A DNA stretch of 64,000 nt from contig CAZKFF010000004.1 of assembly GCA_964552045.1 (NCBI GenBank), positions 20,368-84,367 of the forward strand, given 5' to 3'. Below are positions 1 to 40,004 of this stretch, piece by piece. This DNA comes from an uncultured Candidatus Saccharibacteria bacterium. Its GTDB lineage: Bacteria; Patescibacteriota; Minisyncoccia; Phycocordibacterales; UBA918. The notes below the pieces were generated by a model. That model had not been told where the DNA came from and searched no databases. It saw nothing but the letters and a program-made list of their open reading frames with translations. Both the position numbers and the translations under genes were made by a program. The number at the start of each line of letters is the position of its first letter. Position 1 is the stretch's first letter.

Positions 1-2932
1 AAGACGGATATGATTCTCCTGAGTTGGTCTCAACGGGCAGGTCTGCATTAACGTCATAGAGCCTGAAGTAATATACGGTGTTCACGTGCACGGTTTTGGG
101 GATGATCGAGAACTCATACTCAGTTGCTGCACCGTTGCTATGCCTGAACCCGCTGTGCGGCAGCGGGCTTTCGTTGTGCGTGCCACACCCAACTCCTGCG
201 CCTGCGCTGCACGAATCCGCATCGGAAAGCACCGCCGTGGTGATCGTGGCATTGTCAACGCCTGCGCCATCGAAATAGCACCACACCGATGTATTTGTAC
301 AGGTGCTCGTGCTGCTGACGTCGGTAGAGGTCGCGAAGTTTATATCTTCAGAGAATTGGAGCTTGAAACGCGCATCGTCTTCCGGCATATTGGATATCTC
401 TTTGACGGTCACGCGCAGTTTCAGCGAATCATTTCGCGTCACATCTATGGGTGCAGTTACCTCTGAGGCAAGCGCCAGGCTTGGCGTTTCATTCTCTGCA
501 TCCCCGTAAAAACGCCAGTGCTGGCTCCGCGGATTGAAGCTTGCGGTACGCAATTGCGGATAATCCGTATACTCGCCCAAGAGCGTACCATTCTGTTCGA
601 CCATGCGGAAGCAGTAGAACGTCCCGGAGGGCGCATTGTTCTGCTGTATGAGCCAATCGAATTCCACATCGTCTCCCATGTCTACCGCATACGGGTTTAT
701 AGCGCTGCTATTCTCCTTTTCATACGTTCCTGCCGTATCTGATACGGTCAGATTGAGGTCACCGCTTGTCGGCGGTTCTGTGCTCAGAACCGTACCGTCG
801 GTAGTCGAGGCATTATAGCCTCTCCAAAGCGCACCAGAGCCGATCGCCCCGACGTCCGTCCAGTTCGCTTCACTGATAGCCCCGCAGGTACTTATTCGTT
901 CTCCATACTGGAGCTTGAAACTCTTGGAGTATTGCGGGAAGGTTGCGGTCTCAGCCGTAAGCGACATGCGGATGCGGATGCGCTCGCCATTCTGCAAGGG
1001 TTCGTCGGTTTCGGTCAAGACTGTGTTCTCTCCGAGATCGACAACACCTTCGGGCCATGGGTCGGTCGGATCAATCGCATTGTTGTCAACATAGAATCGG
1101 TAATCGTTCTGATCGAGCGACAACTTAGCCGTCGGCCATTCAACGACCTCAGTGCGGTAATCCATCTGCGTTCCCGTGTCACTTCTCCATATTTCGTAAT
1201 GGGTCGATGAAGCGATAAAAAAGCCAGCGATCGGCCGCGGATACGTCGTGCCGATGCCTACGCCGGATGTATTGGCGAAGATCGATGCGACAGAAATGTC
1301 CGTGAGGGTCTTTCCGATCGACACGCTCAGGGTTAAGGGCTCATCGCCCCCCGATGTATTTCCATTTGAGCGCGTCACCGCCATAGAGCCAAGACCAGTT
1401 TGTGTGTTCTCGATAACCCATGCCACGGAAGTCTGATCGCCCGGATTGTTCGCACCGTTTTGCAGGAGGAACGAGACTGCGCCGATGCTCGAGAGCCACA
1501 CTTCATGGCCGTATTCATCTGTTCCCGACAGTCCCGTCCCCGAACGCTTCTGCGTATGGATGAAACTCCGCACAAGGCTGTTCACCGGCGTGATGCTCTC
1601 CGTCTCAGTCACGCCTGCAGCTGCATAGGTATGCTCAACGCGCTCAATGTTCCAATTCGCCCCGGTAAATTCCACCACCGCGTAGCTCACTACTGCGGCA
1701 TCACCGCCTGTCTCGCCGCGGGTGAACACCGGCTCGTCTGTTGCATTTGCCCAGGCTGCCGTTGAAATGCCCGTATTATAATCGCTTGTGGTCGTGTCGG
1801 GCGTGCGCTGTCCGGTTATAAAGACAACCACATCATTGTCATCTGCAACAGATGCTGCTGTTCCGGTTGCAGAGAGTGCGGTCGTGCCGTATGTCAGCAC
1901 ATCCTGATCGCGTACGATAAACTCATTGTCTGATCCGGGAATGCCGACAAACTCAACGATCTCCCACGACACGCGCGAATTATTCAGCGCTGTGCCCGCC
2001 CGTGTGAATGTCACTGATGTGGCGATATTCTCAGGGTCAGCAATGGCAACGGTGACATCGTCTGCCGGCTGGGTTCCACCGATAACATTCTTTCCCGCCC
2101 CGGTGTAGTGCGAGTTCGTGATCCTGATGAATGCGGAGGAAGTCGCTGCCGGGGCGATGTAGTCCACTCCTGCAGTGATGGTCGCGGAGGTGCCGCTTAC
2201 CGTGACCGTGCCACGCTGCACAGTGAAATCGCGCTCCGACGCGGTGGTGAGTTCAGGATAGACACTGTATGCGTCGAGCGGCGATCCCGACGCACTCAGC
2301 CTGAAGCAGTACGTTGCGCCGTATGCTGCCTGCTGCGTCTGTATGATCGAAAACTCAGTTTCAATGAATTCTGTTGACGCCAAAGTAGTTGAGGCGACCA
2401 AAGGCGATGTATCCTTCAGTGCGGCATTTGCAGAGATGAAAGTTGTGTTCTCATCAGTGATGCCGCCAGCAGCTTCGCTGATGTTCGTCGTATTGCTGCC
2501 GTCGGTGATGTGTGACGAATCATACATCTCCCACGCAGCGTTTACTGCATTGACATTCACCCACGCAGCCACAGCGCTGCAGGAGGTGATCTTTGTCCCG
2601 TATTGCAACTGCAGAGCTGTTGACGACGATGTGACTACTCCTTCATTCGACACACCGATGCGCAACCGCACTGCTGTCTCGCGCGACACAGAATCGATCG
2701 CTGTATCCTCATTTCCCTGTGTCAGCGAGGCGGCGAGCGTCTCAGACCCGTCATCAGCACGCCAGTGATAGTGCACCTGTGTCAGGGCATCGTCTGCCCC
2801 ATGTACTTGCATTATTTTCAAAAGCGAACCGTCAATGCCGCTGCAGCTGAACGCAAGAAAGAGCAGCACGACGCATGCCAGGCATTTCTGCACAATCAAA
2901 AAGCAACGGTTTTGGTAACTCCGCCTGTTCAT
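1..2932 (-). CDS. Large secreted repeat protein, 5' part only (the gene runs off the window start). ATG at 2930-2932, N-terminal signal peptide MNRRSYQNRCFLIVQKCLACVVLLFLAFSCSG, then at least three copies of a ~200-aa domain (HY[RH]WR.DDG ... LQYG ... C ... YCFR[ML]) that also occurs in the giant protein.
   Basis: Hand translation of the minus strand from 2932 downwards shows an open frame with no stop through position 1. The six-frame track has no other long ORF covering 1-2930 because this ORF is unterminated. Signal peptide plus homology of the repeated domain to giant-protein residues ~1380-1505 (FKLQYG...YCFRMV.QDGT.L..Y..YPQ). A GAGGAAG Shine-Dalgarno-like motif lies ~20 nt upstream. 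Confidence 0.55.
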   Translation of the reverse strand, partial: MNRRSYQNRCFLIVQKCLACVVLLFLAFSCSGIDGSLLKIMQVHGADDALTQVHYHWRADDGSETLAASLTQGNEDTAIDSVSRETAVRLRIGVSNEGVVTSSSTALQLQYGTKITSCSAVAAWVNVNAVNAAWEMYDSSHITDGSNTTNISEAAGGITDENTTFISANAALKDTSPLVASTTLASTEFIETEFSIIQTQQAAYGATYCFRLSASGSPLDAYSVYPELTTASERDFTVQRGTVTVSGTSATITAGVDYIAPAATSSAFIRITNSHYTGAGKNVIGGTQPADDVTVAIADPENIATSVTFTRAGTALNNSRVSWEIVEFVGIPGSDNEFIVRDQDVLTYGTTALSATGTAASVADDNDVVVFITGQRTPDTTTSDYNTGISTAAWANATDEPVFTRGETGGDAAVVSYAVVEFTGANWNIERVEHTYAAAGVTETESITPVNSLVRSFIHTQKRSGTGLSGTDEYGHEVWLSSIGAVSFLLQNGANNPGDQTSVAWVIENTQTGLGSMAVTRSNGNTSGGDEPLTLSVSIGKTLTDISVASIFANTSGVGIGTTYPRPIAGFFIASSTHYEIWRSDTGTQMDYRTEVVEWPTAKLSLDQNDYRFYVDNNAIDPTDPWPEGVVDLGENTVLTETDEPLQNGERIRIRMSLTAETATFPQYSKSFKLQYGERISTCGAISEANWTDVGAIGSGALWRGYNASTTDGTVLSTEPPTSGDLNLTVSDTAGTYEKENSSAINPYAVDMGDDVEFDWLIQQNNAPSGTFYCFRMVEQNGTLLGEYTDYPQLRTASFNPRSQHWRFYGDAENETPSLALASEVTAPIDVTRNDSLKLRVTVKEISNMPEDDARFKLQFSEDINFATSTDVSSTSTCTNTSVWCYFDGAGVDNATITTAVLSDADSCSAGAGVGCGTHNESPLPHSGFRHSNGAATEYEFSIIPKTVHVNTVYYFRLYDVNADLPVETNSGESYPS

Positions 2933-2949
2933 ATTCTGTTCTCTGTATT

Positions 2950-4950: not shown

Positions 4951-5721
4951 TCAGCGTATAAATGAATCAGCTAAAATGATCCCAAAATCCCTGAATGTCA
5001 TGCTACCGTCCCCGTTGAAGTCATACACCACGCTCCTGTTGCCCCATGCGGACATGAACCGGCTGATATCGGCTATGGTCACGTTTCCATCACCGTCGAT
5101 GTCAGTTACGATAATGATCGCAGCTGCACCCTGAAGATTGACACCGTTTGCGCCCTCTGACGCGAGATCCTGTCCATCAGTGATATAGAGCGTTGCGGAG
5201 TCTCCATTAGTACGCTCGACAGATACTTTTGAACCGCTTCCATCCCCAGCGAGCAATACCACATCCTCAACCGAGACCTGGGCCAGGCCGGTTTCAGTGG
5301 CGCGTGCATTGACCGTGGCGATAAGGTGATCGCCTTTGAATCCGCGTCGGAACGTTCCTCCCTGCAAAATAACCGTATTGTTCTCAACATATGGGTCTTG
5401 GGTCCAGAGCGTTATCACCGACTCTCCAGTATCAATGCCGAGCACTTCGATCTGATCCTTCGGAAATGACAGACTGATGTCCACTGCATTGACTGCAACA
5501 TGCGCATTGACATACACGCCAATTTGAAACGTATCCCCAGCATGAAGCGCCTGTTGGGATGATTCGATATGGATATAGGATGTGCCGCTGCTTATAACTG
5601 CAGCAACGCTCAGAAGAGCGGCAAATGCGAACACCAGCGGAAAAGCGTACCGCACGGTCGAACTCCTGTTTGGCAAGCAGGGCGCGCAAAAGTAGTAGAT
5701 GATTTTTCGTATCAGGTTCAT
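4951..5721 (-). CDS. Small secreted protein with an N-terminal cohesin-like beta-sandwich module and a C-terminal type I dockerin (two Ca-binding repeats: DIDGDGNVTIADISRFMSAW / DFNGDGSMTFRDFGIILADSF). Candidate adaptor.
   Basis: Signal peptide. The region HAGDTFQIGVYVNAHVAVNAVDISLSFPKDQIEVLGIDTGESVITLWTQ...VSVEDVVLLAGDGSG resembles the cohesin-like modules of 6400..8160 and 38454..40004. The C-terminus matches the dockerin EF-hand-like duplicated segment (D.D/N.DG.V...D... twice). Confidence 0.6.
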   Translation of the reverse strand: MNLIRKIIYYFCAPCLPNRSSTVRYAFPLVFAFAALLSVAAVISSGTSYIHIESSQQALHAGDTFQIGVYVNAHVAVNAVDISLSFPKDQIEVLGIDTGESVITLWTQDPYVENNTVILQGGTFRRGFKGDHLIATVNARATETGLAQVSVEDVVLLAGDGSGSKVSVERTNGDSATLYITDGQDLASEGANGVNLQGAAAIIIVTDIDGDGNVTIADISRFMSAWGNRSVVYDFNGDGSMTFRDFGIILADSFIR

Positions 5722-6399: not shown

Positions 6400-8160
6400 T
6401 TAGTCTACCAAATCTTCCACATCTCCTATCTCCTTTTCTACGCGTTTCTGCGAGACTGCAAGCGCCTGTGTAAGTGACTCGAAGAGCGCCGCCTCTGCTT
6501 TCGTGAGCTTCTTCGTTTTGCGCGCGCCTTCAAGCTGCGCCTTCTGAGACCCCAGCTCCTTCTGGAGTTTTTGGAACTCCGACGCCAGCATGGACAGAGC
6601 TTCTTGTGCCTCTTTGCTGACGCCTTTCTTCAATGACCGTATCCGAGCCAAGAGAATGACGCCGCCGAGGAATAATACTGCACACAATGCGGCAAGCGGT
6701 ACGACAACCGACAGTACACTCACCAGAAATCCGCCGAGCCGTATGAATCCCGGCTGCTGTACCGCTATACGGATCGGATCGGAGACATCGCTCTGCGCGC
6801 CGTACTGGTCAATCGCCACCGCAGTGAGTTCATAGACACCGAGTGAGAGCCGTCCGTCAGGGATGAAAACGAACTCGCCGCTCTCCGAGCTTGTGACCTC
6901 GAATTCTCTCGCTGCGGAAGCTGTCGATACGCCGAGCCCGGTTTGCGTGAGGGTGACCTTCACCTTCGCATTTGGACGCGTAATACCCTTTATAACCGGT
7001 ATGACCTGTTCGTTGATCTCTGTTGGATATTCGGTGAACTGCGGCTTGTCGAATGCGAGAATGCCAAAGGAGAATGTACTGATGATGCTGTTGCCAGCCT
7101 CGTCGAACGCCTCAATGATCGCGGTATGGTGGCCAGGCTCCAGTGCGGGAAGCATCAGCGTGGAGCTGCCGGTCTCATCAATGAACTCATACGGCTCCTT
7201 CCCGTCAAGCTGCACGAGGAAACGCCGCACGAGCGAGGTCGCATCTTCAGTCTTCAGTACGAGTGTCTGCACCGGACTGGAAAGATCAGCAGCCTCAGGC
7301 AGTGCTATCTCGAACATCGCCGGTTTTTCTGTGTCCACTGCCAGACGGTAATGCGCGACCTTGCCCCAGCCTTCCGCGTTTTTGAACTGCATATGGAAAT
7401 ACGACACGCCTTCATCAAGGTCTTCAAGCGTGATGTCGCGGATCGGTGTGTCATAGACCTTCGTCGGTATCGATCCCGAATTCTCATCAAGAAGCGTGCG
7501 GACTGCGGTCACACCCTCAGGTACTGTCCAGCTCAATGAGGCGGTCTTCTGCGTATACCACGCAGCACTGTCCGGATGCGTTTCGGACTGTATCTGTGGC
7601 GCTCCGGGCGTGTTCGCAGGCGCAATGTACTCGATGGTTTCGGGCTCCGGCACGACATCAGCGGCACTTATGGTGTACGCACCGCCATTCATCGACGTGA
7701 GCACATTTGTCCCCTTTCCGTCAGCTGCAAGGACCGACCCGTTCGTAAACGATACTTTAGGACTGCCGGCGCTGTTTGCTTTGAACGTAACAGAAATAAC
7801 CGTGCCATTGCTTCCGGTGTACCCCGTAGGACTGCCGCCGCTGAACGTGATGGTACCGTTGGCATTGGAGTACGAAGGTTCTGCTGTCCATAGATTGAAA
7901 ATGCTCCCTTTGCTCACCCCGATGACGCTTATCTCCCTCGGATTGAATGAAAGCGTTCCGTCGGCGGCATTGATCGGTTCGCCGCTTGTGTTGACCACAA
8001 CGCGTGCGGTGAACGTCGATCCCGCGGTATAGACCCCTGTGCCGGGTGCAAGTGAAAGCGTTGCCGCATGAGCAGAAGCGCCGCAGAGCACAAACAGCGC
8101 GATGAGCGTGATTTTTATTGCGATGAGACTATGTGTATGGTACCGGTGCATGTTATTCAA
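6400..8160 (-). CDS. Cohesin-like domain surface protein anchored by a C-terminal TM helix followed by a cytoplasmic coiled-coil tail.
   Basis: 586 aa. Signal peptide (...CGASAHAATLSL). N-terminal module TGVYTAGSTFTARVVVNTSGEPINAADGTLSFNPREISVIGVSKGSIFNLWT...GTVISVTFKANSAGSPKVSFTNGSVLAADGKGTNVL. C-terminal LGGFLVSVLSVVVPLAALCAVLFLGGVILLA TM plus KKGVSKEAQEAL...QKELGSQKAQLEGARK coiled coil. Paralog of 38454..40004. Confidence 0.6.
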   Translation of the reverse strand: MNNMHRYHTHSLIAIKITLIALFVLCGASAHAATLSLAPGTGVYTAGSTFTARVVVNTSGEPINAADGTLSFNPREISVIGVSKGSIFNLWTAEPSYSNANGTITFSGGSPTGYTGSNGTVISVTFKANSAGSPKVSFTNGSVLAADGKGTNVLTSMNGGAYTISAADVVPEPETIEYIAPANTPGAPQIQSETHPDSAAWYTQKTASLSWTVPEGVTAVRTLLDENSGSIPTKVYDTPIRDITLEDLDEGVSYFHMQFKNAEGWGKVAHYRLAVDTEKPAMFEIALPEAADLSSPVQTLVLKTEDATSLVRRFLVQLDGKEPYEFIDETGSSTLMLPALEPGHHTAIIEAFDEAGNSIISTFSFGILAFDKPQFTEYPTEINEQVIPVIKGITRPNAKVKVTLTQTGLGVSTASAAREFEVTSSESGEFVFIPDGRLSLGVYELTAVAIDQYGAQSDVSDPIRIAVQQPGFIRLGGFLVSVLSVVVPLAALCAVLFLGGVILLARIRSLKKGVSKEAQEALSMLASEFQKLQKELGSQKAQLEGARKTKKLTKAEAALFESLTQALAVSQKRVEKEIGDVEDLVD

Positions 8161-9223
8161 TATCCTCCTCTGTCAACTCTGCTTTTCTTCTGGTGCGGCG
8201 TCTGAACAGGAACACAGCGATACCTGCACATACCCCAAGCAGTGCCACTATGGATGCTGCGAGCACGCCTATGATAAACAGATTGTCCTCGGAGAACGTC
8301 CGTTGACTTTCTTCTGGTACGAGCGTCGCGATGTATTCATTGCCTGCCTTATCTATTGCACGCACGCGGATGGTGCTGTTAAGCGACTGGTCATCAAGCA
8401 CATATGGGCTCTTTGCCTCTACCCATGGCGCGGTCTCCGCGCCCCAGCCAAAGAGGTTTTTCGAATCAAGCGGCTCTTCGATGACCTCGTAGTGATCGAC
8501 GCCAGATTGCTTGTCGGTAGTGTTGAAGGAGATGTGGTATTTTCCGAATTCATTGGGAATCCTACTAAGTGAAATGCTGAACTTCTCCGGCGGCAACTGG
8601 TCATTTGCGACCGCTTCCTGCCAGGGGTTCTGCACAGTTGCCCCCGCCTCCTTTGCCAGTAGAACTGAAGCACCAAACACCTGCGGTTCCACCCGTGTTC
8701 CAAAGCCGTCGTTGAGCAGCACGTGCGTCTGCGGATCGAAACCGATCGAGGCGACATTGCCGCTTTCGCTTTGACCGATCTGCAAACCCGGAGACTGGAA
8801 CAACAGATCGATAACATTGTTGGTCAGGCGCGGATCACCCGGGATACGTCCGCAGTAGCCATTGGGTATGCCTCCGGCGAAGGTGATCGTCCGATTCTCC
8901 TTGTTGATGACCGGCTCTTCTACCCAGAGGTTGAGAACGGAATTGCCCCGCGATGTATCAACCGGTTGGATGTTTTCGCTGTACGTAATAACCGCATCGA
9001 CGACGTTGACGCATTCACCTTCGTCTGTGTCGAGGCGCACCGAGATCACCATAGTGTCGCCGCGCTTAAGCTCAGCCTGATTAGGGTCCATGTACAAGCT
9101 GGCAGCATGAGCTTCGTGGGCAACACACAAGAGCAATACCTGTAGAGACAGCAGAAGCACACCTTTTTTCATGTAATTAAGTATACCGTGCACTTTTGCT
9201 TCAGGACTGGAATTGCTGTGCAT
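8153..9223 (-). CDS. Cohesin-like domain surface protein with a C-terminal TM anchor (LFIIGVLAASIVALLGVCAGIAVFLF-RRRTRRK).
   Basis: 356 aa. The likely start is the internal MKKGVLLL signal peptide. N-terminal module ASLYMDPNQAELKRGDTMVISVRLDTDEGECVNVVDAVITYSENIQPVDTSRGNSVLNLWVEEP follows the same pattern as the other cohesin-like modules. 8-nt overlap with the upstream gene. Confidence 0.5.
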   Translation of the reverse strand: MHSNSSPEAKVHGILNYMKKGVLLLSLQVLLLCVAHEAHAASLYMDPNQAELKRGDTMVISVRLDTDEGECVNVVDAVITYSENIQPVDTSRGNSVLNLWVEEPVINKENRTITFAGGIPNGYCGRIPGDPRLTNNVIDLLFQSPGLQIGQSESGNVASIGFDPQTHVLLNDGFGTRVEPQVFGASVLLAKEAGATVQNPWQEAVANDQLPPEKFSISLSRIPNEFGKYHISFNTTDKQSGVDHYEVIEEPLDSKNLFGWGAETAPWVEAKSPYVLDDQSLNSTIRVRAIDKAGNEYIATLVPEESQRTFSEDNLFIIGVLAASIVALLGVCAGIAVFLFRRRTRRKAELTEEDIE

Positions 9224-9255
9224 AGTCCTCTCTTCTGAGCTTTACCCAAACAAAA

Positions 9256-9286
9256 AACCTACTCGTGGTGGGAGATAGGTTTTTTG
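9256..9286 (-). terminator. Rho-independent terminator-like hairpin with A/T runs on both sides (aaaaaacctactcgtggtgggagataggtttttt), downstream of the 9422..10558 gene.
   Basis: GC-rich imperfect stem flanked by an A-run and a T-run. It lies in the 198-bp gap after a monocistronic minus-strand gene. Confidence 0.4.
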
Positions 9287-9421
9287 CAGCTCTTGCTATT
9301 GCAATTTTCGCACCAAACAAGTATTCATCATGCGGTGCACAACTATTCCTTCTTTGGTGTACAAGAGAAATAAATCGTTGCTGTTCAAGATACGCGAATA
9401 CTCGAACAGGTCATTATTTCC

Positions 9422-10558
9422 TTAAAAAGTAGGAGTTGCTATATAGGTAAGCGTAGTAGTGTAGTCGTCTCCCGCCTCCTGGAGGCTTGAGATCTCCACC
9501 TTGTAACCTACGCGTGCTGTACCTTCGCCAGTGCCGGCACCATTAGCTGGTCCGTTATGGCTCATCACGACGCGCGGAGTGGTACTCGCTGCGGCAAACT
9601 CGCCGGAGCCGAATTCATCTCCTGCATCGCGTGTTGTGTCTGAGTCATTCGAAGTGAAGCCCCAGTGACCATAGGTGTTCTCGCTGCCCATGACTTCAAC
9701 TGGTGAAGCCCACGCAGTTGGAGTATTGGTATCGGAACCTTCGACAAACCCGTCGATGTCAGCGCCAGTTGAAGACTGGAGCGCCTGGTCGAGCTGAACG
9801 GTTACAACGTATCCGTTGGCAGCGTTGGTGTTTACCGTAAGGTCCTGTGCAGTTGTAGTCGCATTCCCGTCAGTGAGTGCGCCGAATGGGATCGACGTCG
9901 TAGACGCCGCACCCGTAGTGGTTGCACCATTGACCGCCTGGTTTGCTCCTACCCCTGCAACAGTGAACGTGAAGATCGTATCCACAGCTGCAGTTACCTG
10001 CACACTGTTGATGATCGCCACCCGGGCTGTACCTGAATCGGCAGAACCTGCGGTTATGTCGATATCGTACGCGCCTTCCGCTGCAGGGTTCGAGATCTGC
10101 GTATCTCCTGCAGATCCGAATGTAGCGTTTGTACCAATTTCGATCGTCACTGTTGCGTTCGCGCCCAATGCGGCGTCAACGCTGGTGAGCGTGATGGATG
10201 ATGCTGTGGTAGCAACTCCCCACTGTTCACCGGACTGGTCTCCTTCGATGACCAATGTGTAATCGGACGTTGAGGCAAAGTCGATATCTTCAACCCCAAT
10301 GGACGAAGTATCAAAGTTGCCGTCAAAATCGATCACGATTGATTCACCCGATGCTATGCCTGTCGGCGTAGTAAAGGATATGGTGTGGTTTGATCCGGCG
10401 CTTGGCGCTGAATCAGTGAGCGTATCGCTGACATTGGTGAGGTTAGCGGCGCTCGCAAATTGGAGATTAGGAATCCCTAATGACCACAATGTGATCGCAA
10501 GACCCCCAATTATTGCAATAGTTTTGAGCAATGTAACGGTTTTTTCCGTTGTGTACAT
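9422..10558 (-). CDS. Secreted Thr/Ser/Gly/Ala-rich structural protein (paralog A). Conserved N-terminus (SDSAPSAGSNHTISF) and conserved C-terminal motif TTLTYIATPTF.
   Basis: 378 aa. SPI-type signal peptide (…LQFASAANLT). Paralogous along its full length to 45940..47058. Monocistronic and followed by a terminator. Confidence 0.6.
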   Translation of the reverse strand: MYTTEKTVTLLKTIAIIGGLAITLWSLGIPNLQFASAANLTNVSDTLTDSAPSAGSNHTISFTTPTGIASGESIVIDFDGNFDTSSIGVEDIDFASTSDYTLVIEGDQSGEQWGVATTASSITLTSVDAALGANATVTIEIGTNATFGSAGDTQISNPAAEGAYDIDITAGSADSGTARVAIINSVQVTAAVDTIFTFTVAGVGANQAVNGATTTGAASTTSIPFGALTDGNATTTAQDLTVNTNAANGYVVTVQLDQALQSSTGADIDGFVEGSDTNTPTAWASPVEVMGSENTYGHWGFTSNDSDTTRDAGDEFGSGEFAAASTTPRVVMSHNGPANGAGTGEGTARVGYKVEISSLQEAGDDYTTTLTYIATPTF

Positions 10559-10956: not shown

Positions 10957-12102
10957 TCAGCCTGTCCAGTTAAACAACAATATGGAGAAATCCTCCAGGC
11001 CGACATTGCCGTTGCCGTTAATATCTGCTTTCGGATCGGAATCACCTCCCGAGGTCTGCCACCAGAATATGAGTATGGAAAAGTCAGTGAGGTTTACGGA
11101 ACCGTCACGGTTAAGGTCAGACGGAGTCGCGGCGGTGCCATTCACACCGACAAACAGCTGCACGGTGGTGCTGAAACTGCTTTCGGTAGTGAGCGTTCCG
11201 CTGCCGAGAATGAACCGCGCTCGTGCGGTGTGTTCGTCCGCAGAGAGGCCTGAGGTGGGGTAAGAAATGGTCCATGCGCCATTTGTTCCTGAGGTTGCAG
11301 AAAGCACCTCGTCACTGTCGTCGATATGCACCTCAACGCGTGTATTCGGGATCGTCTGTCCGGAAAAGACGACCGTATCGCCCGGGTTGATGGTCGCGTC
11401 ACTCACCGAGAGCGTCGGCGGAATGAGCACGCCAGACACATTCGTGATGGCACCCTGCGTGACATCGAAGGTCGTATTGTATGTCACTGACCGCACCCGG
11501 TTCAAATCAAACGACCAGAAGCCGAGCGAGACAGTGCCTGGAGACGCATTGGTAGCGAAATCGAACCGTCCAGAGCTGTCGGCGCGAACCGTACCCACTT
11601 CCTTGGCGTCGAGAAGCACATGCACTGTCTGATTGGGATAACCCCGACCGGTGATGCTTACCTGCGTATCGCCGAGCTCATCATCGCTTCCCCCGCTGCT
11701 TGAAGAGCCGCCGCCTGAAGAGCCGCCGCCGCCGCTCCCTGCTACTTCTACAGTACAATCCGCCGCACAAAAGTCACCGTCATCATTGTTGCCATCATCG
11801 CATTCTTCACCATGCAGGGTCTGCAGAATCGCGTCACCGCAGTATGGTCCGTAGTTGCAGTCAACGTCGCATTGTCTCCCGATGATCGTCGTGCTGTACA
11901 CGCCTGTCTCTCCCAGTACGTCGCACTCTTCTCCGTCGTCCACGAGCGCATTGCCGCAGATAGAGAGCGTCAGGGTTGTTGTCGCAATGAACCCGGGTGT
12001 GAGCTGTGCATATGCCACAGGAGTACACACTGCAATAGTGAGCGCAACGCCAAGAAGCAATAATGTCTTATGCATTAATCTCAACCGCGTGCGCATGCCC
12101 AT
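10957..12102 (-). CDS. Secreted dockerin protein: Myxococcus-type cysteine-rich repeats (CGNALVDDGEECD...CGDAILQTLHGEECDDGNNDDGDFCAADC), a Gly/Ser linker, an Ig-like middle region and a C-terminal type I dockerin (DLNRDGSVNLTDFSILIFWW / DINGNGNVGLEDFSILLFNW).
   Basis: 381 aa. Signal peptide. The Cys-rich repeat matches the CGDG..GEECDDGN pattern. The dockerin has a duplicated Ca-binding loop. Paralogous in middle and C-terminal parts to 40597..42507. Confidence 0.7.
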   Translation of the reverse strand: MGMRTRLRLMHKTLLLLGVALTIAVCTPVAYAQLTPGFIATTTLTLSICGNALVDDGEECDVLGETGVYSTTIIGRQCDVDCNYGPYCGDAILQTLHGEECDDGNNDDGDFCAADCTVEVAGSGGGGSSGGGSSSSGGSDDELGDTQVSITGRGYPNQTVHVLLDAKEVGTVRADSSGRFDFATNASPGTVSLGFWSFDLNRVRSVTYNTTFDVTQGAITNVSGVLIPPTLSVSDATINPGDTVVFSGQTIPNTRVEVHIDDSDEVLSATSGTNGAWTISYPTSGLSADEHTARARFILGSGTLTTESSFSTTVQLFVGVNGTAATPSDLNRDGSVNLTDFSILIFWWQTSGGDSDPKADINGNGNVGLEDFSILLFNWTG

Positions 12103-12105
12103 ACG

Positions 12106-13065
12106 TTATTGCATCCGCCGATTTACCTTTCTCTGGCGTGCGGTATGAACGCCGAAGAGTAGGAGAGCGAGCAATGCAAGTATCGGAAGTATGACCGAAA
12201 CCTGGTGTGCCAATGAAAGTCCGAGGAATCCGAATCCGGCAATCTGCAGTGTTCCATACGGAAGAATATTGAGGTTCACTTCTCCCTCTTGTTTCACTTC
12301 ATCATCATTGAATATCTGATAACGCGCAATATAGGTGCCTGCCGGCAGACGCGTCGGCAGTTCGGCCACGATCTCTTCGGTTGCGTACGGAGCTACCTTC
12401 TCTATTTTTCCTTTGTTCCGGACGTCTTCAAGAAGCACATTGCCCGTAGCATCATATATCTTGAATGCAACCTTTGACGGAGCAACATCAATGTTACCAG
12501 TATTCTCAAGGAGCATACCGAACCTGATCTTTCCAGGGAAATACAGCCACGCGAACTTATGTCCTTCATTGAGATCAGATATGTTTATCTTGCGGATGCG
12601 GAAATCCTTGATCTCCTTGTCGATGACGCTGAGGTCGATATCAACCTGTGCACCAAGTGAAATGTTGACTGCGCCGGCCGAAACCTCATCATCAACTGCT
12701 CCTGTTTTGATACGGATCGCACCCGTGTAATTTTTGAACTCAGCATCTTCCGGCACCTTCACACGAATAGTCATGGGAACCTTCTGCTCACCGCGTGGCA
12801 GTTCGAACTCTGTGCCTTCCACGATCTCGATCCAGTCCAGTATCTCAGGAGCATCGACGACTACAGTTGCTTTCAGCGGCACGTTCGGATCTCCGCGGAC
12901 AAGAAGTATCTGCTGTTCATAGGTCGAGTTGCGGGTGAGGCTCGTGTTGCGTACGTATGGCGGGGTCACACCAAAACCAGCGAGGGCTAAATCGGCTCCA
13001 AGTATCACAAAGAGAAGTATTGCTATGCAGAACGATTTAGCAAAGTTCATTATGTATCCCGACAA
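12106..13065 (-). CDS. Cell-surface protein with signal peptide and a C-terminal TM anchor. Its fold is like the DUF916/DUF3324 proteins of Gram-positive WxL-type surface loci.
   Basis: 319 aa. The likely start is the internal MNFAKSF. C-terminal hydrophobic helix plus basic tail (ILPILALLALLLFGVHTARQRKVNRR). Architecture parallels 44668..45741. Confidence 0.45.
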   Translation of the reverse strand: MSGYIMNFAKSFCIAILLFVILGADLALAGFGVTPPYVRNTSLTRNSTYEQQILLVRGDPNVPLKATVVVDAPEILDWIEIVEGTEFELPRGEQKVPMTIRVKVPEDAEFKNYTGAIRIKTGAVDDEVSAGAVNISLGAQVDIDLSVIDKEIKDFRIRKINISDLNEGHKFAWLYFPGKIRFGMLLENTGNIDVAPSKVAFKIYDATGNVLLEDVRNKGKIEKVAPYATEEIVAELPTRLPAGTYIARYQIFNDDEVKQEGEVNLNILPYGTLQIAGFGFLGLSLAHQVSVILPILALLALLLFGVHTARQRKVNRRMQ

Positions 13066-19322: not shown

Positions 19323-22300
19323 TTAATCGCCTATTGCGTAGAAGATGTTAGTTCCCTGGTGCGGATTGCTTGCCACGCCGTACGGTATCTCGATGCCCCA
19401 GTAGACGACGTCAGTAACCGGGCTTGAGCTTGATGTCGGCTTAGTGAGATCAACCTCAAGGTCGGTAGCTGTGGTCGAGGATAGTGCGCTGCAAGATGTA
19501 CATGCAGTGTAGGTGAATGTCGAGGTTGCAAACAACTGTTCAGACGCGGGGATGAACGAGGATCCGCCGTCTGTGAGGTCGGTTCCCTCAAGTTCGATAT
19601 CGATCGGCACATTGCCGAGGTTCTGTACGGTCGTGGTCGGATTGTACGAACCGGTTGTCGAGGATACTGCAAGAGGCCCGTAATTGATCGCTGCGTCAAC
19701 ATCAAGCGCATGAAGTGTGAGGAGCTCGATCTGCGTAGTGGTCGGCGTTGAGCCGATGTCGATGCCTCCTCCCTGGTCGGAGACCTCGACCGCAGCAAGC
19801 CACTCTTCACCTTCATAGGCGCTGCCTGCGTCGGTTGCATCAGCATGGAAGTAGAAATCAGCGCTGCAGGAGATCGAACAGCTGTTTCCGGAACAGCCTG
19901 ACAGTTCACATAAAGGTGCAGCAGATACGTAACAGTTGTTATTGTCCGGCGTACATGCCGCACCCACGCCGCTGCGGTACATTGTTGCGGTTGCATGTGT
20001 GAGATCGTCAAAGCCGTTGAGGTCGGTTACCGTACCCGTGGTATATACCGTTGTGGTCGATCCCGGCACGAGAGCGATGGCGGCACCCCCATTGAGCGAC
20101 ACATTCGTGACGATCGGATCGAATCGGAGTTCGAGCTCTGCAACGCTCAGATATGTATCAAGCGGATCGCTTGCATCAGTCACCCGCAGACAGTATGAAG
20201 GCGCTGAGGCATTGATGGTCGGCGTGAGGGCATATTCCAGTTCGGTATATTCGTCCTGGTCAATGGTGAGTGCAGCAGTGGTGTTTGACGGATCTTCAAC
20301 GACCTTACCGGAAGTGAACTGTCCATCTACCTCAAAGAGGAGATCAGTGGTAGCTCCATTGTCGGTGAGATGGCTCGATGCCTGCATACACAAAGGCGAA
20401 CTGCCGCACGAGCTCTGTGGAGGCACAATCGCATAGCTTGCGCTGCTGACCGCCTCACAACTCGGTGCTGCGCCTTTTGTCGCATATTCAATGTCGAATG
20501 TCTGGCCGGTGATCTGCAGTCCGGAATTCTCGACAGCCACACGCAATCGGGCAATATCCCCGTGCGTGTAGGCATATGATTCGTCGAGGTCAGCAGCCCA
20601 GCTTGCTCCCCCGCTCACCTGTTTGTCGCCGAAGTAGACTGTCGGTTCGGTATCGACGTGCGGCCGCGCACTATAATTGTCCCATCCACCGTTCTGGAAC
20701 CAGAAGGTGAAGCCGATGCCGCCCGAGGTGTATGTATTGTCGCTTGCGGATGCCGTCGCTGCCGTAGCTCCATCTTTTGAGAGCGTCACATCCATGTCCC
20801 CGCCAGTCTGCCAGTCGATCTCAACCTCGTACCATCCCGAACCTAAGGTCGGGAAGTCAACCGTACTTGAGGCAAGAACGGTTCCCGACGAATCAGTGTT
20901 CTGTGCGTTCTCCACGATCGACATGCGATCGACGCCGAACTGTTCAAGACAGATGGCGTAGTTCTGATTGCTGGTTACGGGCGATTGCACACCGAAGAGT
21001 GTACAGACCTCATCGCCGTTGCCTGCGTCGGTATCTACATACTGCATATACCGGATGATCTGTCCCTGGCTCACCGTAAGTCCAGTGTCCGCAATACCGT
21101 CAGTGGCTTTATCGCTCTCATGTGCGGTCGCATCAAGTCCGAACGAGCCGCCATAGGCAAAGCTGCTGCCGACATTAAATAGGCTTGTATCGCCGCTGTA
21201 CTCGGTTATGTTTCCGTCCTCGAAGTCGTCTGCGGCGATGAATGCGTCTGCACTCGAGCTTGTGGACGAAGCAGTTGCATTGTCGAAGTACATGTAAAGC
21301 GTTGTTATATCTTCAGCAGCAAGGCTCGGCACCTGCACCCATATGTCCGCGTCGGCACTTGCGGTGTACCGCTCAATGAAGTGCGGGATGGTGGTTGTTC
21401 CGCTTGCATCAGTGAAGCGGAGATCATCAAAGTCTCCCTGCATCGCGGCATCATAGGCAACAGACAATTTGACTGCTGCATCGGTATAGGTTGCTGCGTC
21501 AGGATTCTCCAACCGGACCCGCTTGCGCGCACCCCATGATGCATTGAACCACTCGCTGTCCGGCACATCGACGCCGCCGTCATCGTGGCGCCAGCGGTAG
21601 TGCGTCTGCTGGGTGAGGAGACACGAACTGTCGTTCCATCTGATGGAACCGCAGGCGGTCGCGCCATCATCATCGTAATCCTCACCGGCAAGATTACCCG
21701 TGTGGCTGACGAACGCCCAGGCATTGGTCGTCGTGCCGATGAGCGTGACGTTCGTACCCGTGATCGCCGTGGTCGTTGCAAAACGGTTTCCAGAAATGAC
21801 CTTCGACGCATTCGCATCAAGGGTCGCGGATGACAGCGTGATAAGGCTTCCGCCGCTGACTGCAAGTTCAAAGTCTCCCTGCGACAACGAAGTAATGAAC
21901 GGTGTGCCGGAGAACAGCAGCCCTTCGGCATTGAGATCCCGGTACCGATAATAGAGTGCGTTGAATGTGCCGTCAGACACCGCGAACGCATAGGTACCGC
22001 TTCCCTGGTTCTGGACGGTTGTGCTGTTGCCGGAAGCGCCGATCATGTAAAGCGTGCCCCCATCCACGGTTGTGGTTGCATTGCCGGCAATAGAGACTGT
22101 CACTGCCCGCTCGATACCCGCCAGACTGGCGCCGTCAAAGTCGGTGGCATAACTCCAGTATTCAGTTGTCGTGCTGACATGGAAATCGCCGTATATGGTG
22201 AGCGCTCCGTCACTTCCTCCATGATCCTGCGAATACAGCGAAGCTGACGGTTGCACTGTAGTCGTATCCGCGCTTGAGTTCCATACGCGGATATCAGTAT

Positions 22301-25300
22301 CGTCACCCACGATCAACGTCCCGTACTGATCTCCGTCAGAAAGTTTCGTATTTATCGAATAGCCTGCCCCCGCATCAAGGATGAGTGTCGCTCCGCTCCA
22401 GGTAGTTGCACCGCCGCCGACATTGTTCGTAAAGACATTACCGACATAAAGACGGGTGCCGCTCTGCTGCGTGAACGATGACGCCAGTGACAGTGAGAAG
22501 TTGTGCGTAGCGGTCGCATTGCCAGTTATGGCCCATCCGCCGCCGGCGTTTGCCAGAACTACATTGTAGAAATTGCTGTTGCCCGGATCTATGGTCTCGC
22601 CGGCATCAGCTGAATTGAAGAGCACCGTGCCGGTCGCACTGTCGAACAATCCGCCTGACGCATCGAATGAGCCTCCGATCGCAAGCGTGCTCGAAGCGAA
22701 CAGAACTGATCCCTGCGCGATACGCAGATCGTCGAGAAGCGAGAGGCTCTCATCCTCCATAGTAAATGTGCCGGCGCCGCTGAATATGACTGCATACAGA
22801 TCAGAACTCGAAGCAAGCAGGGATGCGCCGGTGTCATTGGTGAAATACAGGTCTGCAGTATTGTGGACGATATCCCCTCCGGTATTTCTGAAGTCGCCAC
22901 CGACAGCGAACGCGCCTGACGGCAGCGTGAGCGTTCCCGCCTGGACCGTGACCGATCCGGTTGTGGTCGCATTGGCGTCAGTCATGGTCCATGCGCCGCC
23001 CACCCCGTTGAAGATGAGCTCCTCAAGATTCGAACCGCCGGCGCGGAGAATATTGCCGGTTGTTGCCGCGTCGAACACAAGCGTGCTGCCGTTGATCACA
23101 AATGAACCACCGTTGTTGCTGAACGAACCGCTCACGGTGGTTGTGCCGGTCGGGAACGTAAGCACGCCGTCTGTAATGAAGATGTTCTGTACATCGAACG
23201 TGGCATCGGTTATGCTCCAGCTGCCGCTTCCGCTGAAGACCGTGTTGTAGAACGATTCACTATTGGCGTCAATTGTGCGCGCAGCACCAGTTGTCGTGAA
23301 CGTTGTTGTCGACAAACCGGCATCGAAGGAGGCATTACTGCCGAGGATGAACGAACCGCCGATGCTGTGCTCCTGCGCTCCAGAGAAGCTGACTATTGCA
23401 TTGGCATAGGCTTCGAATGTCCCGTCGTATGCAGCGCCTGCGCCGCCTCCCTGAAGGGTAATATTCCCGTCAGGTTCGAATTCCTTTCCGCTCCACACGA
23501 TGAGCTTTCTGTTCGCAGGCAGCACAAGCGTATCAGGAGAACCGTCAATGGCCGTAAATGGGATATCAGCATCATCTGAAGAATCCCACACTGCCATGTC
23601 GGCAATGTTCAGCGGATCAGTGCCCTCGTGACGTACGATCACGCGGTTCTCATATATATGCATATTGCCGATGTTCGAGACCGGATCCTCAGTGACCGTC
23701 GCACCCTTCTGTGTTTCACCATCAATGTACGCGACAATGGAATCACCAGGACTATATGTGACCCCGCTGACGCTGTACGCGCCTGTTGTTGCATTACAGC
23801 TTGCAGCGTATGACGTCAGTCCGGCAACGCGTACGGTGATATTGTTTGTTGTTCCATCGCAGACTCCTGATACGGTCGTTCCCTCGTCACTGTACACATT
23901 TCCCGCGATCGTAATATTCGCCGCACTGTTATCCCATACGATATAACCGGGGTCACCGTCCGGGTCAACGTCATGCTCTTCGCCGTCGAGCGAGCCGGTA
24001 TGGTTCGTGAATCGCCACGAGCTCACCGACGTGCCGGTTGCGGTGACATTGAACGCGCTGATGCCGGTGGTGGTACTGAAGTTGTTGTTGGTGAACGTCT
24101 GCGCCGGATTGATATCAATGACCGTTCCCCCTACAGTGATACCACTGCCTCCTGCTTGTGCAATCTCGAAATCTCCGTGAGAAAGTGTCACCACGTGCGG
24201 TGCGCCGCTGAATGTAAGGCCTGCGCTGTTGATATCCTCTACGGCATAGTAACTCCAGGAGGTTGAGGCACTTCCTCCGATCAGAAGACTGTACGTTCCG
24301 CTTCCCTGGTTCTCGATGGACGTCGACGCTGAAGCGCTGCCGAGCACCTGCAACCCGCCGGAGAGAAGGTTCATACCTGCACCGCTTTCGAACCGCACAT
24401 GCGCCTGGCGCTCTGTTCCTCCACCGAGCACTGCACCGTCGAAGTCTGTCGCGTAGCTCCAGTGGTCAGTGCCGCCGTTGCCGCCGTAATTTCCATATAT
24501 AAAGAGGTCGCCGTCTACTCCTGCGTGATCCTGTGAATACAGCGATCCTGACGCATCGACAACGTACGCAGAAGCAGAGGAATTCCACATACGAATGTCG
24601 GTATTCGTCCCTACAGCGAAGTTCTCATACGTATCGCTGATGGTCTTTGCATTTATTTCATAATTGGTACCGCTTACAAAGCGGAGCGTGCTTCCTGTCC
24701 AGGTGGTTGCCGCTCCGCCGAGCGCATTGGTGAATGAGCCGCCGAGGGCAAGACTCTGTCCGCTTGCAAGCGTGAACGCTCCCGTGCTTGAAGCAAGCAT
24801 GAAGGCTCCTGTTGTTGTTGCATGTTCGCTTATAGTGAAGTTGCCGCCGCCATTGACGGTGAGGTTGCCGAAAGGAGAAGTTCCCGCAGCGATGTTTATT
24901 GCTCCTGAGCCGTTGAATGTCACTGTTCCATTGCTGCTCGTGTACGTACCGTCATTGTCCCAGCTGCCTGCAACAGTGAACAAACCGGAATTGCTGCCGA
25001 TGAGCGTACCGTTGCTGCGGATGACAACGTCTCCATTGACGCCAAGCGCAGTGTCATGAGTGTCAAAAGTTGCCGCGGTAGCGCTCTCTCCACCAACGGT
25101 AAGGTCATGGAGCACCAGAATACCCAGCCCGGTTGCGGTATAGGTCGGCGCACCCGCACCCGCATTGAGATCAAGATCGTAATACGTTGTGGAAAGGAGA
25201 TTGGTCGCGCTGCCCCCACTGTACCGCACAGTACTCTGGTCCTCGAGGAAGGTACCGTTCTCAACAAAGACCGTGCCGGTTCCCGACAGGTCGAAGCGTG

Positions 25301-38453: not shown

Positions 38454-40004
38454 CTATTTCAATATTTTCTTCACATCATTGATCTCCTTTTCGATGAGTG
38501 TTTCAGAGACCTCGAGCGCCTGATTGAGTCCCTCGACAGCCTCCTTTTCCTTGGCAGAAAGACGCGGCCGTTTGGTGATGTTATTCACCTGATCGTAGAT
38601 CTCATCGCGCAGCGCAGAGAATATTTTTTCCATCTGATCCTGTATCTCGCGGGTCTCTTTGCGGAGCCGTTCCTCCTTCTTACTGAACTGCTTACGTTCA
38701 AAGATGAGGTAACCGAACTGCAGAAGTATGGTAAGGATAAGCAGTCCTATCAGAATGTTCGTACCAGTGAGAAATGACCAGAAGCTCACTTCTTCAACAG
38801 TCTCCGCTGGCTTGACCCATCCTGCGGTGATCAGAACCGGCGATGAGCTCTCTGTCTTATTGCCCGCCTTATCGAAAGCGATCACCTTCACTGTGTATGT
38901 GCCGTCCTCAAGCTCCTTGAGCATGTAGCCGAGTTTTGCTTCGTCCGGCGTGACAACTACCGGTTCTTTGTCCGCAACAGTGAGCTCGTAATGATCAATG
39001 CCCGAAGTCACATCTTTTGCTTCAAATACCAGAAGTGGGAATGAGGAAGGCGAGGTGCCTGCCTGAATATGAATGGCAAACGGTTCAGGTGCTGTCGTGT
39101 CGATCTGGATCTTGCGGTTGGTAATTGCGCCCCAGCCTACCTGATTCTTGAATTGCACGCTGAGATACTGAACGCCGTCTGCAAGATTCTCAGCACTGAC
39201 AACAAACTCCTCTACAGGCGGGTCGATGATCGTGCTCGGTTCGTTTTCCGAAGATGTCGCGATCTCGGCGGCGAGCGCATTGACATCGAACGGCAGTTCC
39301 CAGGTGAACACTCCGTCAACTTTGTTGTACCACAGTTCGGGGTCAAGGAAGGTGACCGATCCAACCTCAGGAGCACGAGGAGGATCGCCGAATGCCAATG
39401 CAGCATTATTGTCTTCGTCGGACGTCTCCGGTTCCGCAGTCTCTTCAGGCTCTTCCGCTGGTGTTGGTGTCTGCGTGGTTGCGGCCGCTACAGTAAAGCT
39501 CGCTCCATTCTTTCCTTCGAGCACATCGGTGCCGCGGCCGTCAGCTGCAAGTGCGGAAGCAGTGCCGAATGCTATAGCTCCCGTACCGTTTGACAGTGTT
39601 CTGAACGTTACAGTGAGCAGATTGGAGCGCGATGAGAACGGCGTCGGGCTACCGCCGCCGAATGAAATGGTTCCTGCAGTATTCGAAAATGTGGGTTCAG
39701 TGGTCCAGAGCGAAAAGACCGATCCGGTTTTGGACACGTTGACCACAGAAAGAACCGACTTATCGAAGGTCAGCTCTGCTTCAACCGCATTGACACTGTC
39801 GCCAGACGGATCAATCTGAATGGTCGTTGTGAACGTCTGCCCCACTGAGTAGGAGCCTGACGCGGGTGATATCTGCAGATTTGCAGCAAAAGCAGTACGC
39901 GTGAAAAGAAGCAGCAGTACGAGAAAAAGCGCCGCCTTGAGAGTAAGCAACAGCAATGGTATTCGATTTTCAAAAAATGAACTCTGGGTTGAAAGAACGC
40001 TCAT
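38454..40004 (-). CDS. Cohesin-like domain surface protein with a C-terminal TM anchor plus cytoplasmic coiled-coil tail (paralog of 6400..8160).
   Basis: 516 aa. Signal peptide (…FAANLQISP). Module SGSYSVGQTFTTTIQIDPSGDSVNAVEAELTFDKSVLSVVNVSKTGSVFSLWTTEPTFSNTAGTISFGGGSPT...GTGAIAFGTASALAADGRGTDVL. TM ILIGLLILTILLQFGYLIF, then KQFSKKEERLRKETREIQDQMEKI... coiled coil. Confidence 0.6.
   Translation of the reverse strand: MSVLSTQSSFFENRIPLLLLTLKAALFLVLLLLFTRTAFAANLQISPASGSYSVGQTFTTTIQIDPSGDSVNAVEAELTFDKSVLSVVNVSKTGSVFSLWTTEPTFSNTAGTISFGGGSPTPFSSRSNLLTVTFRTLSNGTGAIAFGTASALAADGRGTDVLEGKNGASFTVAAATTQTPTPAEEPEETAEPETSDEDNNAALAFGDPPRAPEVGSVTFLDPELWYNKVDGVFTWELPFDVNALAAEIATSSENEPSTIIDPPVEEFVVSAENLADGVQYLSVQFKNQVGWGAITNRKIQIDTTAPEPFAIHIQAGTSPSSFPLLVFEAKDVTSGIDHYELTVADKEPVVVTPDEAKLGYMLKELEDGTYTVKVIAFDKAGNKTESSSPVLITAGWVKPAETVEEVSFWSFLTGTNILIGLLILTILLQFGYLIFERKQFSKKEERLRKETREIQDQMEKIFSALRDEIYDQVNNITKRPRLSAKEKEAVEGLNQALEVSETLIEKEINDVKKILK

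Follow-up and report, generated by a model that had tools for sequence, protein, structure and literature searches.

The 64,000-nucleotide stretch of DNA analyzed here (the window), from an uncultured Candidatus Saccharibacteria bacterium, begins with a truncated gene, gene 1, and encodes a giant protein further along, which raises the question of whether the two products share a domain and what such a domain would do. Patescibacteria account for a large part of bacterial diversity. They live attached to other cells, and their attachment proteins are mostly unannotated. A first-pass annotation had proposed that a repeat of ~200 amino acids is common to both proteins and had named internal stop codons in 1..2932 as one finding that would overturn the proposal. 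Re-translation gave a single stop-free frame of 977 codons on the minus strand (2..2932), starting from an ATG at 2932. The complete gene 1 has about 1,155 codons, of which the captured 5' part comprises 977, and its 3' end lies beyond window position 1. The protein P0001 (100% identical) represents the full-length product, and P0002 is a homolog with 74% identity. Conservation of the N terminus in P0002 supports the ATG at 2932 as the start codon.

That N terminus, as read from the sequence, carries a hydrophobic segment (MNRRSYQNRCFLIVQKCLACVVLLFLAFSC; 2843..2932, minus strand) that is also conserved in P0002 and is probably a signal-like segment or membrane anchor. That gene 1 encodes a secreted multidomain surface protein is supported by inference. 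The same grade of support applies to the extracellular location proposed in the first-pass annotation, given the signal-like segment, the strict covariation of the repeat's cysteines, and a locus rich in surface-protein genes (cohesin, dockerin, Big_13, fn3, and WxLIP-like).

Three copies of the repeat are present in gene 1, the minimum number first proposed, although the measured unit is ~180 rather than ~200 amino acids. Copy 1 (amino acids 50 to 232; 2237..2785, minus strand) is of subtype I (HYHWRADDG...RLRIGVSNEG...LQLQYG...YCFRL...YPELT), with an HMM E value of 1e-57, and appears as a beta-sandwich within the predicted model of the full-length protein. Copy 2 (amino acids 605 to 798; 539..1120, minus strand) is of subtype II (DYRFYVDNNAIDPTDPWP...RIRIRM...FKLQYGER...YCFRMV...YPQLR), and the peptides quoted for it were found in place, with FKLQYGER at residue 672, YCFRMVEQ at 773, and YPQLR at 791. 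Copy 3 (amino acids 800 to 977; 2..535, minus strand) is of subtype III (QHWRFYGD...LKLRVTV...FKLQFSE...four Cys...YYFRLYD...SYPS), carries an alternative four-cysteine pattern, and ends essentially at the window edge.

Gene 1 is not made up almost wholly of the repeat, as had been thought, since amino acids 233 to 604 (1121..2236, minus strand) form a different module of 372 residues, or 38% of the captured gene. This central module is all-beta and weakly 3-fold repetitive, and no other part of the protein family is so well conserved. A weak jackhmmer hint that it might be a diverged copy of the repeat was rejected at an hhalign probability of 0.8%. The three repeat copies frame this highly conserved module, which is probably the functional head of the protein and a better candidate for the function proper, be it binding or catalysis. 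The copies of gene 1 do not form a long array. One precedes the central module and two follow it, and they may instead contribute to binding or pack against it.

The giant protein (19323..38375) contains one intact and one split copy. The intact copy (amino acids 1324 to 1508; 33852..34406, minus strand) is of subtype II and holds the peptides FKLQYGTT at residue 1389, YCFRMVQQ at 1482, and YPQVM at 1500, all where they had been quoted; it is directly followed by an Ig_Rha78A_N domain (Pfam) at amino acids 1522 to 1626. A further copy had been placed near residue 5590. Its two motifs do exist, THYRWRHDDG at 5591 and YCLRVTDA at 6061, but they lie 470 residues apart and probably belong to a single split unit. 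Its detached first strand (amino acids 5586 to 5602, LLTQQTHYRWRHDDGGV; 21570..21620, minus strand) matches the subtype I N-terminal consensus, and its body (amino acids 5911 to 6083; 20127..20645, minus strand), ending in YCLRVTDA...VAELEL, lacks a first strand, because the HMM match spans profile positions 19 to 178 only. The strand HYRWRHDDGG (residue 5591) lies 310 amino acids upstream of this body, and joining the two gains 14.5 bits of HMM score, versus 0.8 for random 17-mers. Between them lies an insert (amino acids 5603 to 5910; 20646..21569, minus strand) with DUF2341 (PF10102) at insert residues 47 to 122, scoring 62.4 bits, above the Pfam threshold of 23.4 bits. The region that follows appears LamG-like on inspection of its sequence and by analogy with the DUF2341 plus Laminin_G_3 inserts of P0211 and P0184. 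The giant protein has three copies of DUF2341 in all, and the strand motif was not found before the other two.

The five copies are homologous, and the repeat is real. BLASTP of gene 1 residues 608 to 869 against giant residues 1327 to 1557 gave 37% identity with an E value of 1e-40. An independent profile, built from the copy 2-type domains of 101 proteins, all from other organisms, scored all five copies at 26 to 199 bits (giant copy 1, 199; gene 1 copy 1, 66; gene 1 copy 3, 33; giant copy 2, through its body, 26.5), far above the best of 900 composition-matched shuffles (11.8 bits). A chance or compositional likeness between Thr/Ser/Asn-rich surface proteins would be in keeping with the biased composition of both products, and with gene 1 copy 3 and giant copy 2 being only 15 to 21% identical to copy 2. 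It is nevertheless refuted by the E value of the best pair and by the fact that every one of the 900 shuffles scored below all five copies; the motifs RLR, LQY, YCFR, and YP.L, which the copies have in common and in register, also speak against it, and its probability is close to nil. Within the window, the repeat was found in these two proteins only.

The repeat is a previously unannotated domain of ~180 residues that is not represented in the domain and structure databases searched. Its initial description as conserved and unannotated is borne out. Gene 1 matched no family in Pfam-A 2025 at an E value of ≤1 and none in NCBIfam 20.0, and when 38 diverse copies were compared with Pfam at an E value of ≤10, no family was matched by more than one copy. 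The repeat is not a member, by sequence, of the Pfam families Big (Big_1 to Big_13), CARDB, fn3, or pilin. For Big, CARDB, and fn3, the only matches among the 38 copies were isolated and subthreshold, in one copy each, to Big_3_2 (E = 0.042) and CARDB (E = 0.11). A sequence-profile search of the PDB with the repeat gave no match, the repeat belongs to no CAZy carbohydrate-binding module (CBM) family by sequence or close structure, and the literature searched for its motif strings held nothing relevant.

The fold is confidently predicted to be an Ig-like beta-sandwich. AlphaFold2 modeled copy 2 of gene 1 with a pLDDT of 93.2, a pTM of 0.90, and seven main strands, the first of which sits in place with a pLDDT of about 96; the model has the two-sheet, roughly seven-stranded arrangement of the Ig-like/E-set class and superposes on known Ig-like domains. 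In the model, about half of the residues (about 90 of 194) lie in a well-ordered cap built from long loops. Foldseek with this model found nothing in the PDB at an E value of <1e-3. The best match, also the best among small proteins, was TTHA1873 from Thermus thermophilus (PDB 7wrk; TM 0.43), a likeness at the level of the fold only, with 10 to 12% identity, E values of 0.01 to 0.02, and no profile match, and TTHA1873 is a single-domain protein and not a repeat. In the matched structures about 100 residues align, whereas the loop cap has no counterpart.

The cysteines corresponding to gene 1 residues 683 and 774 occur together in 433 of 436 copies and are mutually exclusive with an alternative four-cysteine class, and most copies appear to be pinned by a disulfide. 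By sequence, the copies fall into three subtypes that have alternative patterns of cysteines. The best-conserved residues are mostly core-strand positions and the predicted disulfide, and the loop cap has a conserved Trp and Asp-Gly. The conserved cap residues W703, D712-G713, and E635 could form a ligand site.

The repeat was first taken to define a giant-protein family of this organism, which proved too narrow: thousands of proteins carry it, across many uncultured lineages. A profile search of a metagenome-wide library retrieved 5,238 clusters at an E value of ≤1e-3 and 3,040 at ≤1e-10. A single protein can carry as many as 21 copies, and lengths reach up to 7,591 amino acids, although many of the carriers are of ordinary size. 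This exhaustive search of representatives was the informative one, as a word-indexed search of proteins with the profile of the repeat gave six short matches and a search for loci related to the whole of gene 1 gave five close ones. Close homologs come from metagenome-assembled genomes of Kaiserbacteria, Paceibacterota, and Saccharibacteria; labels beyond Patescibacteria (Chloroflexota and Nitrospirota) derive from metagenome bins and may be wrong. The proteins P0121, P0122, and P0123 carry 13, 12, and 10 copies, respectively, separated by linkers of about 5 residues and covering 82 to 86% of the protein, and P0124 carries 21. Each of the first three has a type IV pilin-like N terminus, although the N_methyl Pfam match in P0121 is marginal (21.1 bits versus a cutoff of 21.2). 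The repeat is therefore found, like the stalk domains of fibrillar adhesins, in tandem head-to-tail copies with short linkers that make up most of a long secreted protein. Candidate tips are a discoidin-like domain (P0121), LamG, BNR propellers, and the central module of gene 1, and candidate anchors are the pilin-like N terminus and a shared C-terminal domain that adjoins WxLIP-like genes.

Split copies such as that of the giant protein recur. Nineteen of 20 orphan first-strand motifs are followed, 170 to 690 amino acids downstream, by a match that starts at profile positions 12 to 25, against a background in which 43 of 1,000 matches (4.3%) start at positions 12 to 30; this pairing points to a recurrent site of nested insertion. 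Joining strand and body gains 16.9 bits on average across the split copies, a figure that is partly circular because the orphan-strand motif was derived from the repeat itself, and the noncircular part of the evidence is the lack of a first strand in the downstream bodies. The inserts include a BNR propeller, propeller-like repeats, and DUF2341 plus Laminin_G_3. Judged from these sequences, strand and body would physically rejoin, and the repeat may be more than a bead of a shaft, namely a dedicated display scaffold in which an evolutionarily exploited hot spot right after strand A (after ...WRNDDGGE) takes up whole folded domains (beta-propellers, DUF2341 plus LamG, and others) while the sandwich still closes around its own first strand. 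The probability of this reading falls a little short of even.

Two other accounts of the split copies are far less probable. The type IV pilin-like N termini of some family members would suit a first strand that is exchanged as a donor strand between molecules or neighboring domains, the repeat then being a polymerizing unit of the pilus type. However, about 95% of the copies have a first strand of their own that runs directly into the body, modeled in place as described above for copy 2. Orphan strands and strandless bodies, moreover, always come as pairs within one polypeptide, one strand per body and correctly ordered, as fits insertion in cis. Donor-strand exchange is very unlikely. Equally hard to credit, and if anything slightly more so, is that the split copies are decaying remnants in which a truncated copy has a leftover strand upstream of it by chance and without structural meaning. 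Giant repetitive genes readily recombine and decay, and 24 of the 43 N-terminally truncated matches lack a strict upstream motif. Against decay stand the excess of the 19-of-20 association over the 4.3% background, a break point that is constantly at profile positions 12 to 25, inserts that are complete, recognizable domains rather than junk, and the recurrence of the DUF2341 plus LamG cargo in unrelated proteins.

As for its role, the architecture of these proteins makes it reasonably probable that the repeat is a rigid stalk or scaffold and display module of Patescibacteria surface proteins, stabilized by the predicted disulfide. Repeats chained head to tail would build the shaft of large or even giant proteins at the cell surface or associated with pili, and the permissive loop just after the first strand would carry whole folded domains (beta-propellers and DUF2341 plus LamG) as side-mounted cargo. 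Head-to-tail arrays with short linkers are typical of stalk modules and not of lectins. The possible carbohydrate binding raised in the first-pass annotation is not supported. As a CBM, each copy would bind a glycan of the host cell or matrix, with avidity arising from multiple copies; this would accord with the beta-sandwich fold, common to many CBMs, with the co-occurrence of LamG, BNR, and discoidin-type domains, and with the conserved Trp and Asp-Gly of the cap. Yet none of the 38 copies matched a Pfam CBM or lectin family even at an E value of ≤10, conservation is highest at the core strands and the disulfide, and arrays of 10 to 21 copies with 5-residue linkers are unlike the use of CBMs. 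Nor does the repeat have a sequence match to, or an identified binding-site signature of, the C-terminal carbohydrate-binding domain of Wzt (2r5o, 5hno, and 6o14). Carbohydrate binding is an unlikely role, though a good deal less so than donor-strand exchange or decay.

With the stalk and display role preferred, the nearest parallels are the stalk domains of fibrillar adhesins. Like them, the repeat is probably extracellular, is chained with short linkers into long surface proteins, and has an intradomain cross-link, here the predicted disulfide. It differs from them in its loop cap, in its three subtypes, in the lack of a Big, CARDB, fn3, or pilin family match by sequence, and in the insertion site that recurs after strand A. 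Among Patescibacteria, the giant exoproteins of Patescibacterium danicum exceed 4,000 amino acids, are mostly unannotated, contain DUF2341 or FhaB, and were inferred to act in adhesion or host interaction (PMC11809585). Only the FhaB and DUF2341 pieces are named in those proteins, and the repeat is not described (PMC11809585). They are proteins of a similar kind and give a phylum-level context for the giant protein with its three DUF2341 copies, in which the new repeat flanks, and once appears to enclose, a DUF2341 plus LamG unit.

A profile for this domain of ~180 amino acids would provide annotation for a sizable portion of at least 5,000 protein clusters, with proteins of up to 7,591 amino acids, and would delimit remaining dark regions such as the 372-residue central module of gene 1. 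Knowledge of the insertion site aids domain parsing; without it, orphan strands and copies that seem "truncated" would be mistaken for fragments of their own. If the display scaffold holds true, it would be a plug-in system that diversifies the giant adhesins of ultrasmall episymbionts and of some other uncultured lineages, and a natural insertion-tolerant chassis for protein engineering. The repeat is a useful domain-family discovery and not a new biological principle.

The surroundings of gene 1 bring to mind the WxL/Csc complexes of Gram-positive bacteria, an analogy that concerns the anchoring of the whole protein and not the repeat. The C-terminal domain of gene 1 was rejected as a WxL domain, with no WxL Pfam match in five such C-terminal domains at an E value of ≤10; it also had no match among PDB sequences, and literature on WxL together with Patescibacteria yielded nothing relevant. 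The likeness would lie in the neighboring WxLIP-like genes. Two conserved genes downstream of gene 1 encode membrane-anchored proteins with weak, below-threshold similarity to WxLIP_PGBD (E = 7e-4 and 0.12). Their paralog in the window, encoded at 44668..45741 and 24 to 32% identical to them, matches WxLIP_PGBD with 32.4 bits against a cutoff of 27.3 bits, and its gene adjoins that for a protein with the C-terminal domain of gene 1.

Gene 1 is read from a single stop-free frame on the minus strand of positions 1 to 3000, starting at a conserved ATG at 2932 and leaving the window at its left edge after 977 codons (2..2932). Translation and a check of peptide positions bore out the frame and the peptides quoted in the first-pass annotation, and the minus-strand frame of 1..2932 contains no internal stop. 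The N terminus of the product, MNRRSYQNRCFLIVQKCLACVVLLFLAFSC, resembles a signal or anchor segment and is conserved in P0002, a homolog of 74% identity. The 3′ end that was to be sought by extending the contig was also recovered, since the full-length gene 1 protein, P0001, was found on two Logan contigs; beyond the captured part, it gains a C-terminal domain of about 180 amino acids ending in YIAVPVF. The database entry of P0001 starts 21 codons further in, at an internal GTG (2869). The ATG at 2932 is favored because the longer N terminus is conserved in P0002, and the deposited start probably truncates the signal peptide.

Gene 1 shares a domain with the giant protein, the 6,350-amino-acid product of 19323..38375 (minus strand). 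BLASTP aligned amino acids 608 to 869 of gene 1 with amino acids 1327 to 1557 of the giant protein (37% identity across 267 aligned columns; E = 1e-40); a second match fell on the same copy (E = 1.5e-12) and a third on amino acids 5943 to 6081 (E = 1.5e-8). An independent profile, made from copy-2-type domains of 101 homologous proteins of other organisms only, with no window sequences, gave 199 bits for giant copy 1, 66 bits for gene 1 copy 1, 33 bits for gene 1 copy 3, and 26.5 bits for giant copy 2, versus 11.8 bits for the best of 900 shuffles. Chance similarity between the copies of the two proteins is refuted. Verified copies span amino acids 50 to 232, 605 to 798, and 800 to 977 in gene 1 and 1324 to 1508 and 5911 to 6083 in the giant protein, and scanning the window in all six frames placed the domain in these two products only. 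The repeat proposed in the first-pass annotation is thus a recurring unit, with a length, judged from the copy limits, of about 180 rather than 200 amino acids. Apart from one Ig_Rha78A_N domain and three of DUF2341, Pfam recognizes nothing in the giant protein; its two repeat copies account for about 6% more, and over 85% is still without annotation.

The description of the domain as unannotated holds for the curated families and structures searched: Pfam and NCBIfam returned no family for gene 1 at an E value of ≤1, Pfam gave no consistent match to 38 diverse copies at ≤10, and a PDB sequence-profile search with the repeat gave no match at ≤10. Its motif strings were not found in the literature searched. 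AlphaFold2 confidently modeled gene 1 copy 2, with a pLDDT of 93.2 and a pTM of 0.90 (38-sequence alignment), showing seven main strands and about half of the residues in long, well-ordered loops, from which the repeat is predicted to be an Ig-like core with a large cap peculiar to the family. The most conserved positions, R655 (99%), R776 (98%), Y773, F775, L674, and E757, lie in the strands RLR, LQY, E.E, and YCFR. Cysteines at gene 1 positions 683 and 774 are present in 62% of 704 full copies, with co-occurrence in 433 of 436, while 19% of the copies carry four other cysteine columns, never alongside this pair. Such strict covariation is what would be expected of a secreted domain with alternative disulfide patterns.

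The giant copy reported near residue 5590 is present but not in a single piece. Its first strand (amino acids 5586 to 5601, LLTQQTHYRWRHDDGG) is followed directly by a DUF2341 domain (62 bits) and a LamG-like region, and the remainder of the domain begins about 310 amino acids farther on. In 310 family proteins, which have 1,048 domain matches, 20 occurrences of a strict first-strand motif have no domain next to them. For 19 of these, the next match lies 170 to 690 residues downstream and starts at profile positions 12 to 25, so that the downstream body lacks exactly the first strand; as background, 43 of 1,000 C-terminally complete matches start at positions 12 to 30. When strand and body are joined, the profile score rises by a mean of 16.9 bits, versus about 1 bit with random 17-mers, a gain that is partly circular because the first strand is defined by the motif. 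The inserts are complete domains, namely, a BNR propeller, DUF2341 with Laminin_G_3, and other propeller-like six- to sevenfold repeats, and the second copy of the giant protein belongs among these cases. This arrangement would be most simply read as nested insertion in the loop that follows strand A. As explanations of the split copies, donor-strand exchange and "decayed remnants" are both less likely.

When 1.84 billion representative proteins were searched exhaustively with the domain profile, 5,238 proteins were retrieved at an E value of ≤1e-3 and 3,040 at ≤1e-10, with up to 21 copies per protein and carriers of up to 7,591 amino acids. Close gene 1 homologs (44 to 74% identity), all "hypothetical," are labeled Kaiserbacteria, Paceibacterota, Parcubacteria, or Saccharibacteria, and remoter carriers are labeled Nealsonbacteria, Patescibacteria group, Chloroflexota, and Nitrospirota; these are bin labels and call for caution. 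In the tandem-array proteins P0121, P0122, and P0123, 10 to 13 copies joined by linkers of about 5 residues make up 82 to 86% of the protein. In these proteins (2,050 to 2,536 amino acids), the array follows an N-terminal methylation motif like that of type IV pilins (e.g., G-VTLLE and G-LTLIE), which in P0121 is a marginal N_methyl match (21.1 bits against a 21.2-bit cutoff); they appear to be giant pilin- or pseudopilin-like proteins. P0121 ends in a discoidin-like domain. Pfam domains found alongside the repeat include DUF2341, Laminin_G_3, discoidin-like, IPT/TIG, Kelch, and FG-GAP/VCBS domains and C25, M14, and S8 peptidases. Such arrays and partner domains match the way in which large surface proteins employ stalk modules.

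The repeat falls in with the Ig-like repeats known from giant bacterial surface proteins but belongs to no described family; its distinctive features are the cap, the alternative cysteine patterns, and the recurrent insertion site. We lean toward a role as an extracellular, disulfide-stabilized stalk and scaffold module, which would set other domains apart along a surface protein and display them through the loop after strand A. The carbohydrate binding considered in the first-pass annotation appears unlikely. In gene 1, three copies frame a conserved central module, amino acids 233 to 604, and the claim that the gene consists almost entirely of the repeat does not hold. This central region is a separate all-beta module with weak threefold similarity within itself and is unrelated to the repeat (profile-profile probability of 0.8%). 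Nearly all invariant residues of the gene 1 family alignment fall within it, and it is the likelier functional head.

The C-terminal domain of gene 1 (P0001 amino acids 945 to 1134, beyond the left edge of the window; terminal motif YIA[V/T]P[V/T]F) is a second unannotated domain, with no WxL or other Pfam match and no PDB sequence match. It also ends two smaller proteins, the products of 9422..10558 and 45940..47325 (both minus strand; E = 1e-23 and 2e-21). Downstream of gene 1 are two genes, conserved neighbors in three other metagenome-assembled genomes, that encode membrane-anchored proteins with weak WxLIP_PGBD similarity, and their window paralog at 44668..45741 (minus strand), adjoining 45940..47325, exceeds the Pfam WxLIP_PGBD threshold. 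The other members of this set of membrane-anchored WxLIP_PGBD-like paralogs (12106..13065, minus strand, and 8702..9730 and 9690..10505 of L001) are 24 to 32% identical to it, and these genes adjoin or lie near genes with the shared C-terminal domain. By analogy only, this pairing recalls the WxL/Csc surface complexes of Gram-positive bacteria, here in a Patescibacteria genome; the top-ranked papers of the Patescibacteria literature searched contained no mention of WxL. Elsewhere in the locus are genes for cohesin proteins (6400..8160 and 38454..40004, minus strand), for type I dockerin proteins (4951..5721, 10957..12102, and 40597..42507, minus strand), for proteins with Big_13 and fn3 domains, and for an ABC exporter of the MacB type. 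Several of the secreted cohesin or dockerin proteins also bear Big_13, fn3, or CarboxypepD_reg domains, which points to a possible cohesin-dockerin assembly at the cell surface, encoded alongside the giant protein. Among the surface-protein genes lie two genes in tandem (42562..43368 and 43466..44269, minus strand) whose products carry FGE-sulfatase (formylglycine-generating enzyme-like) domains.
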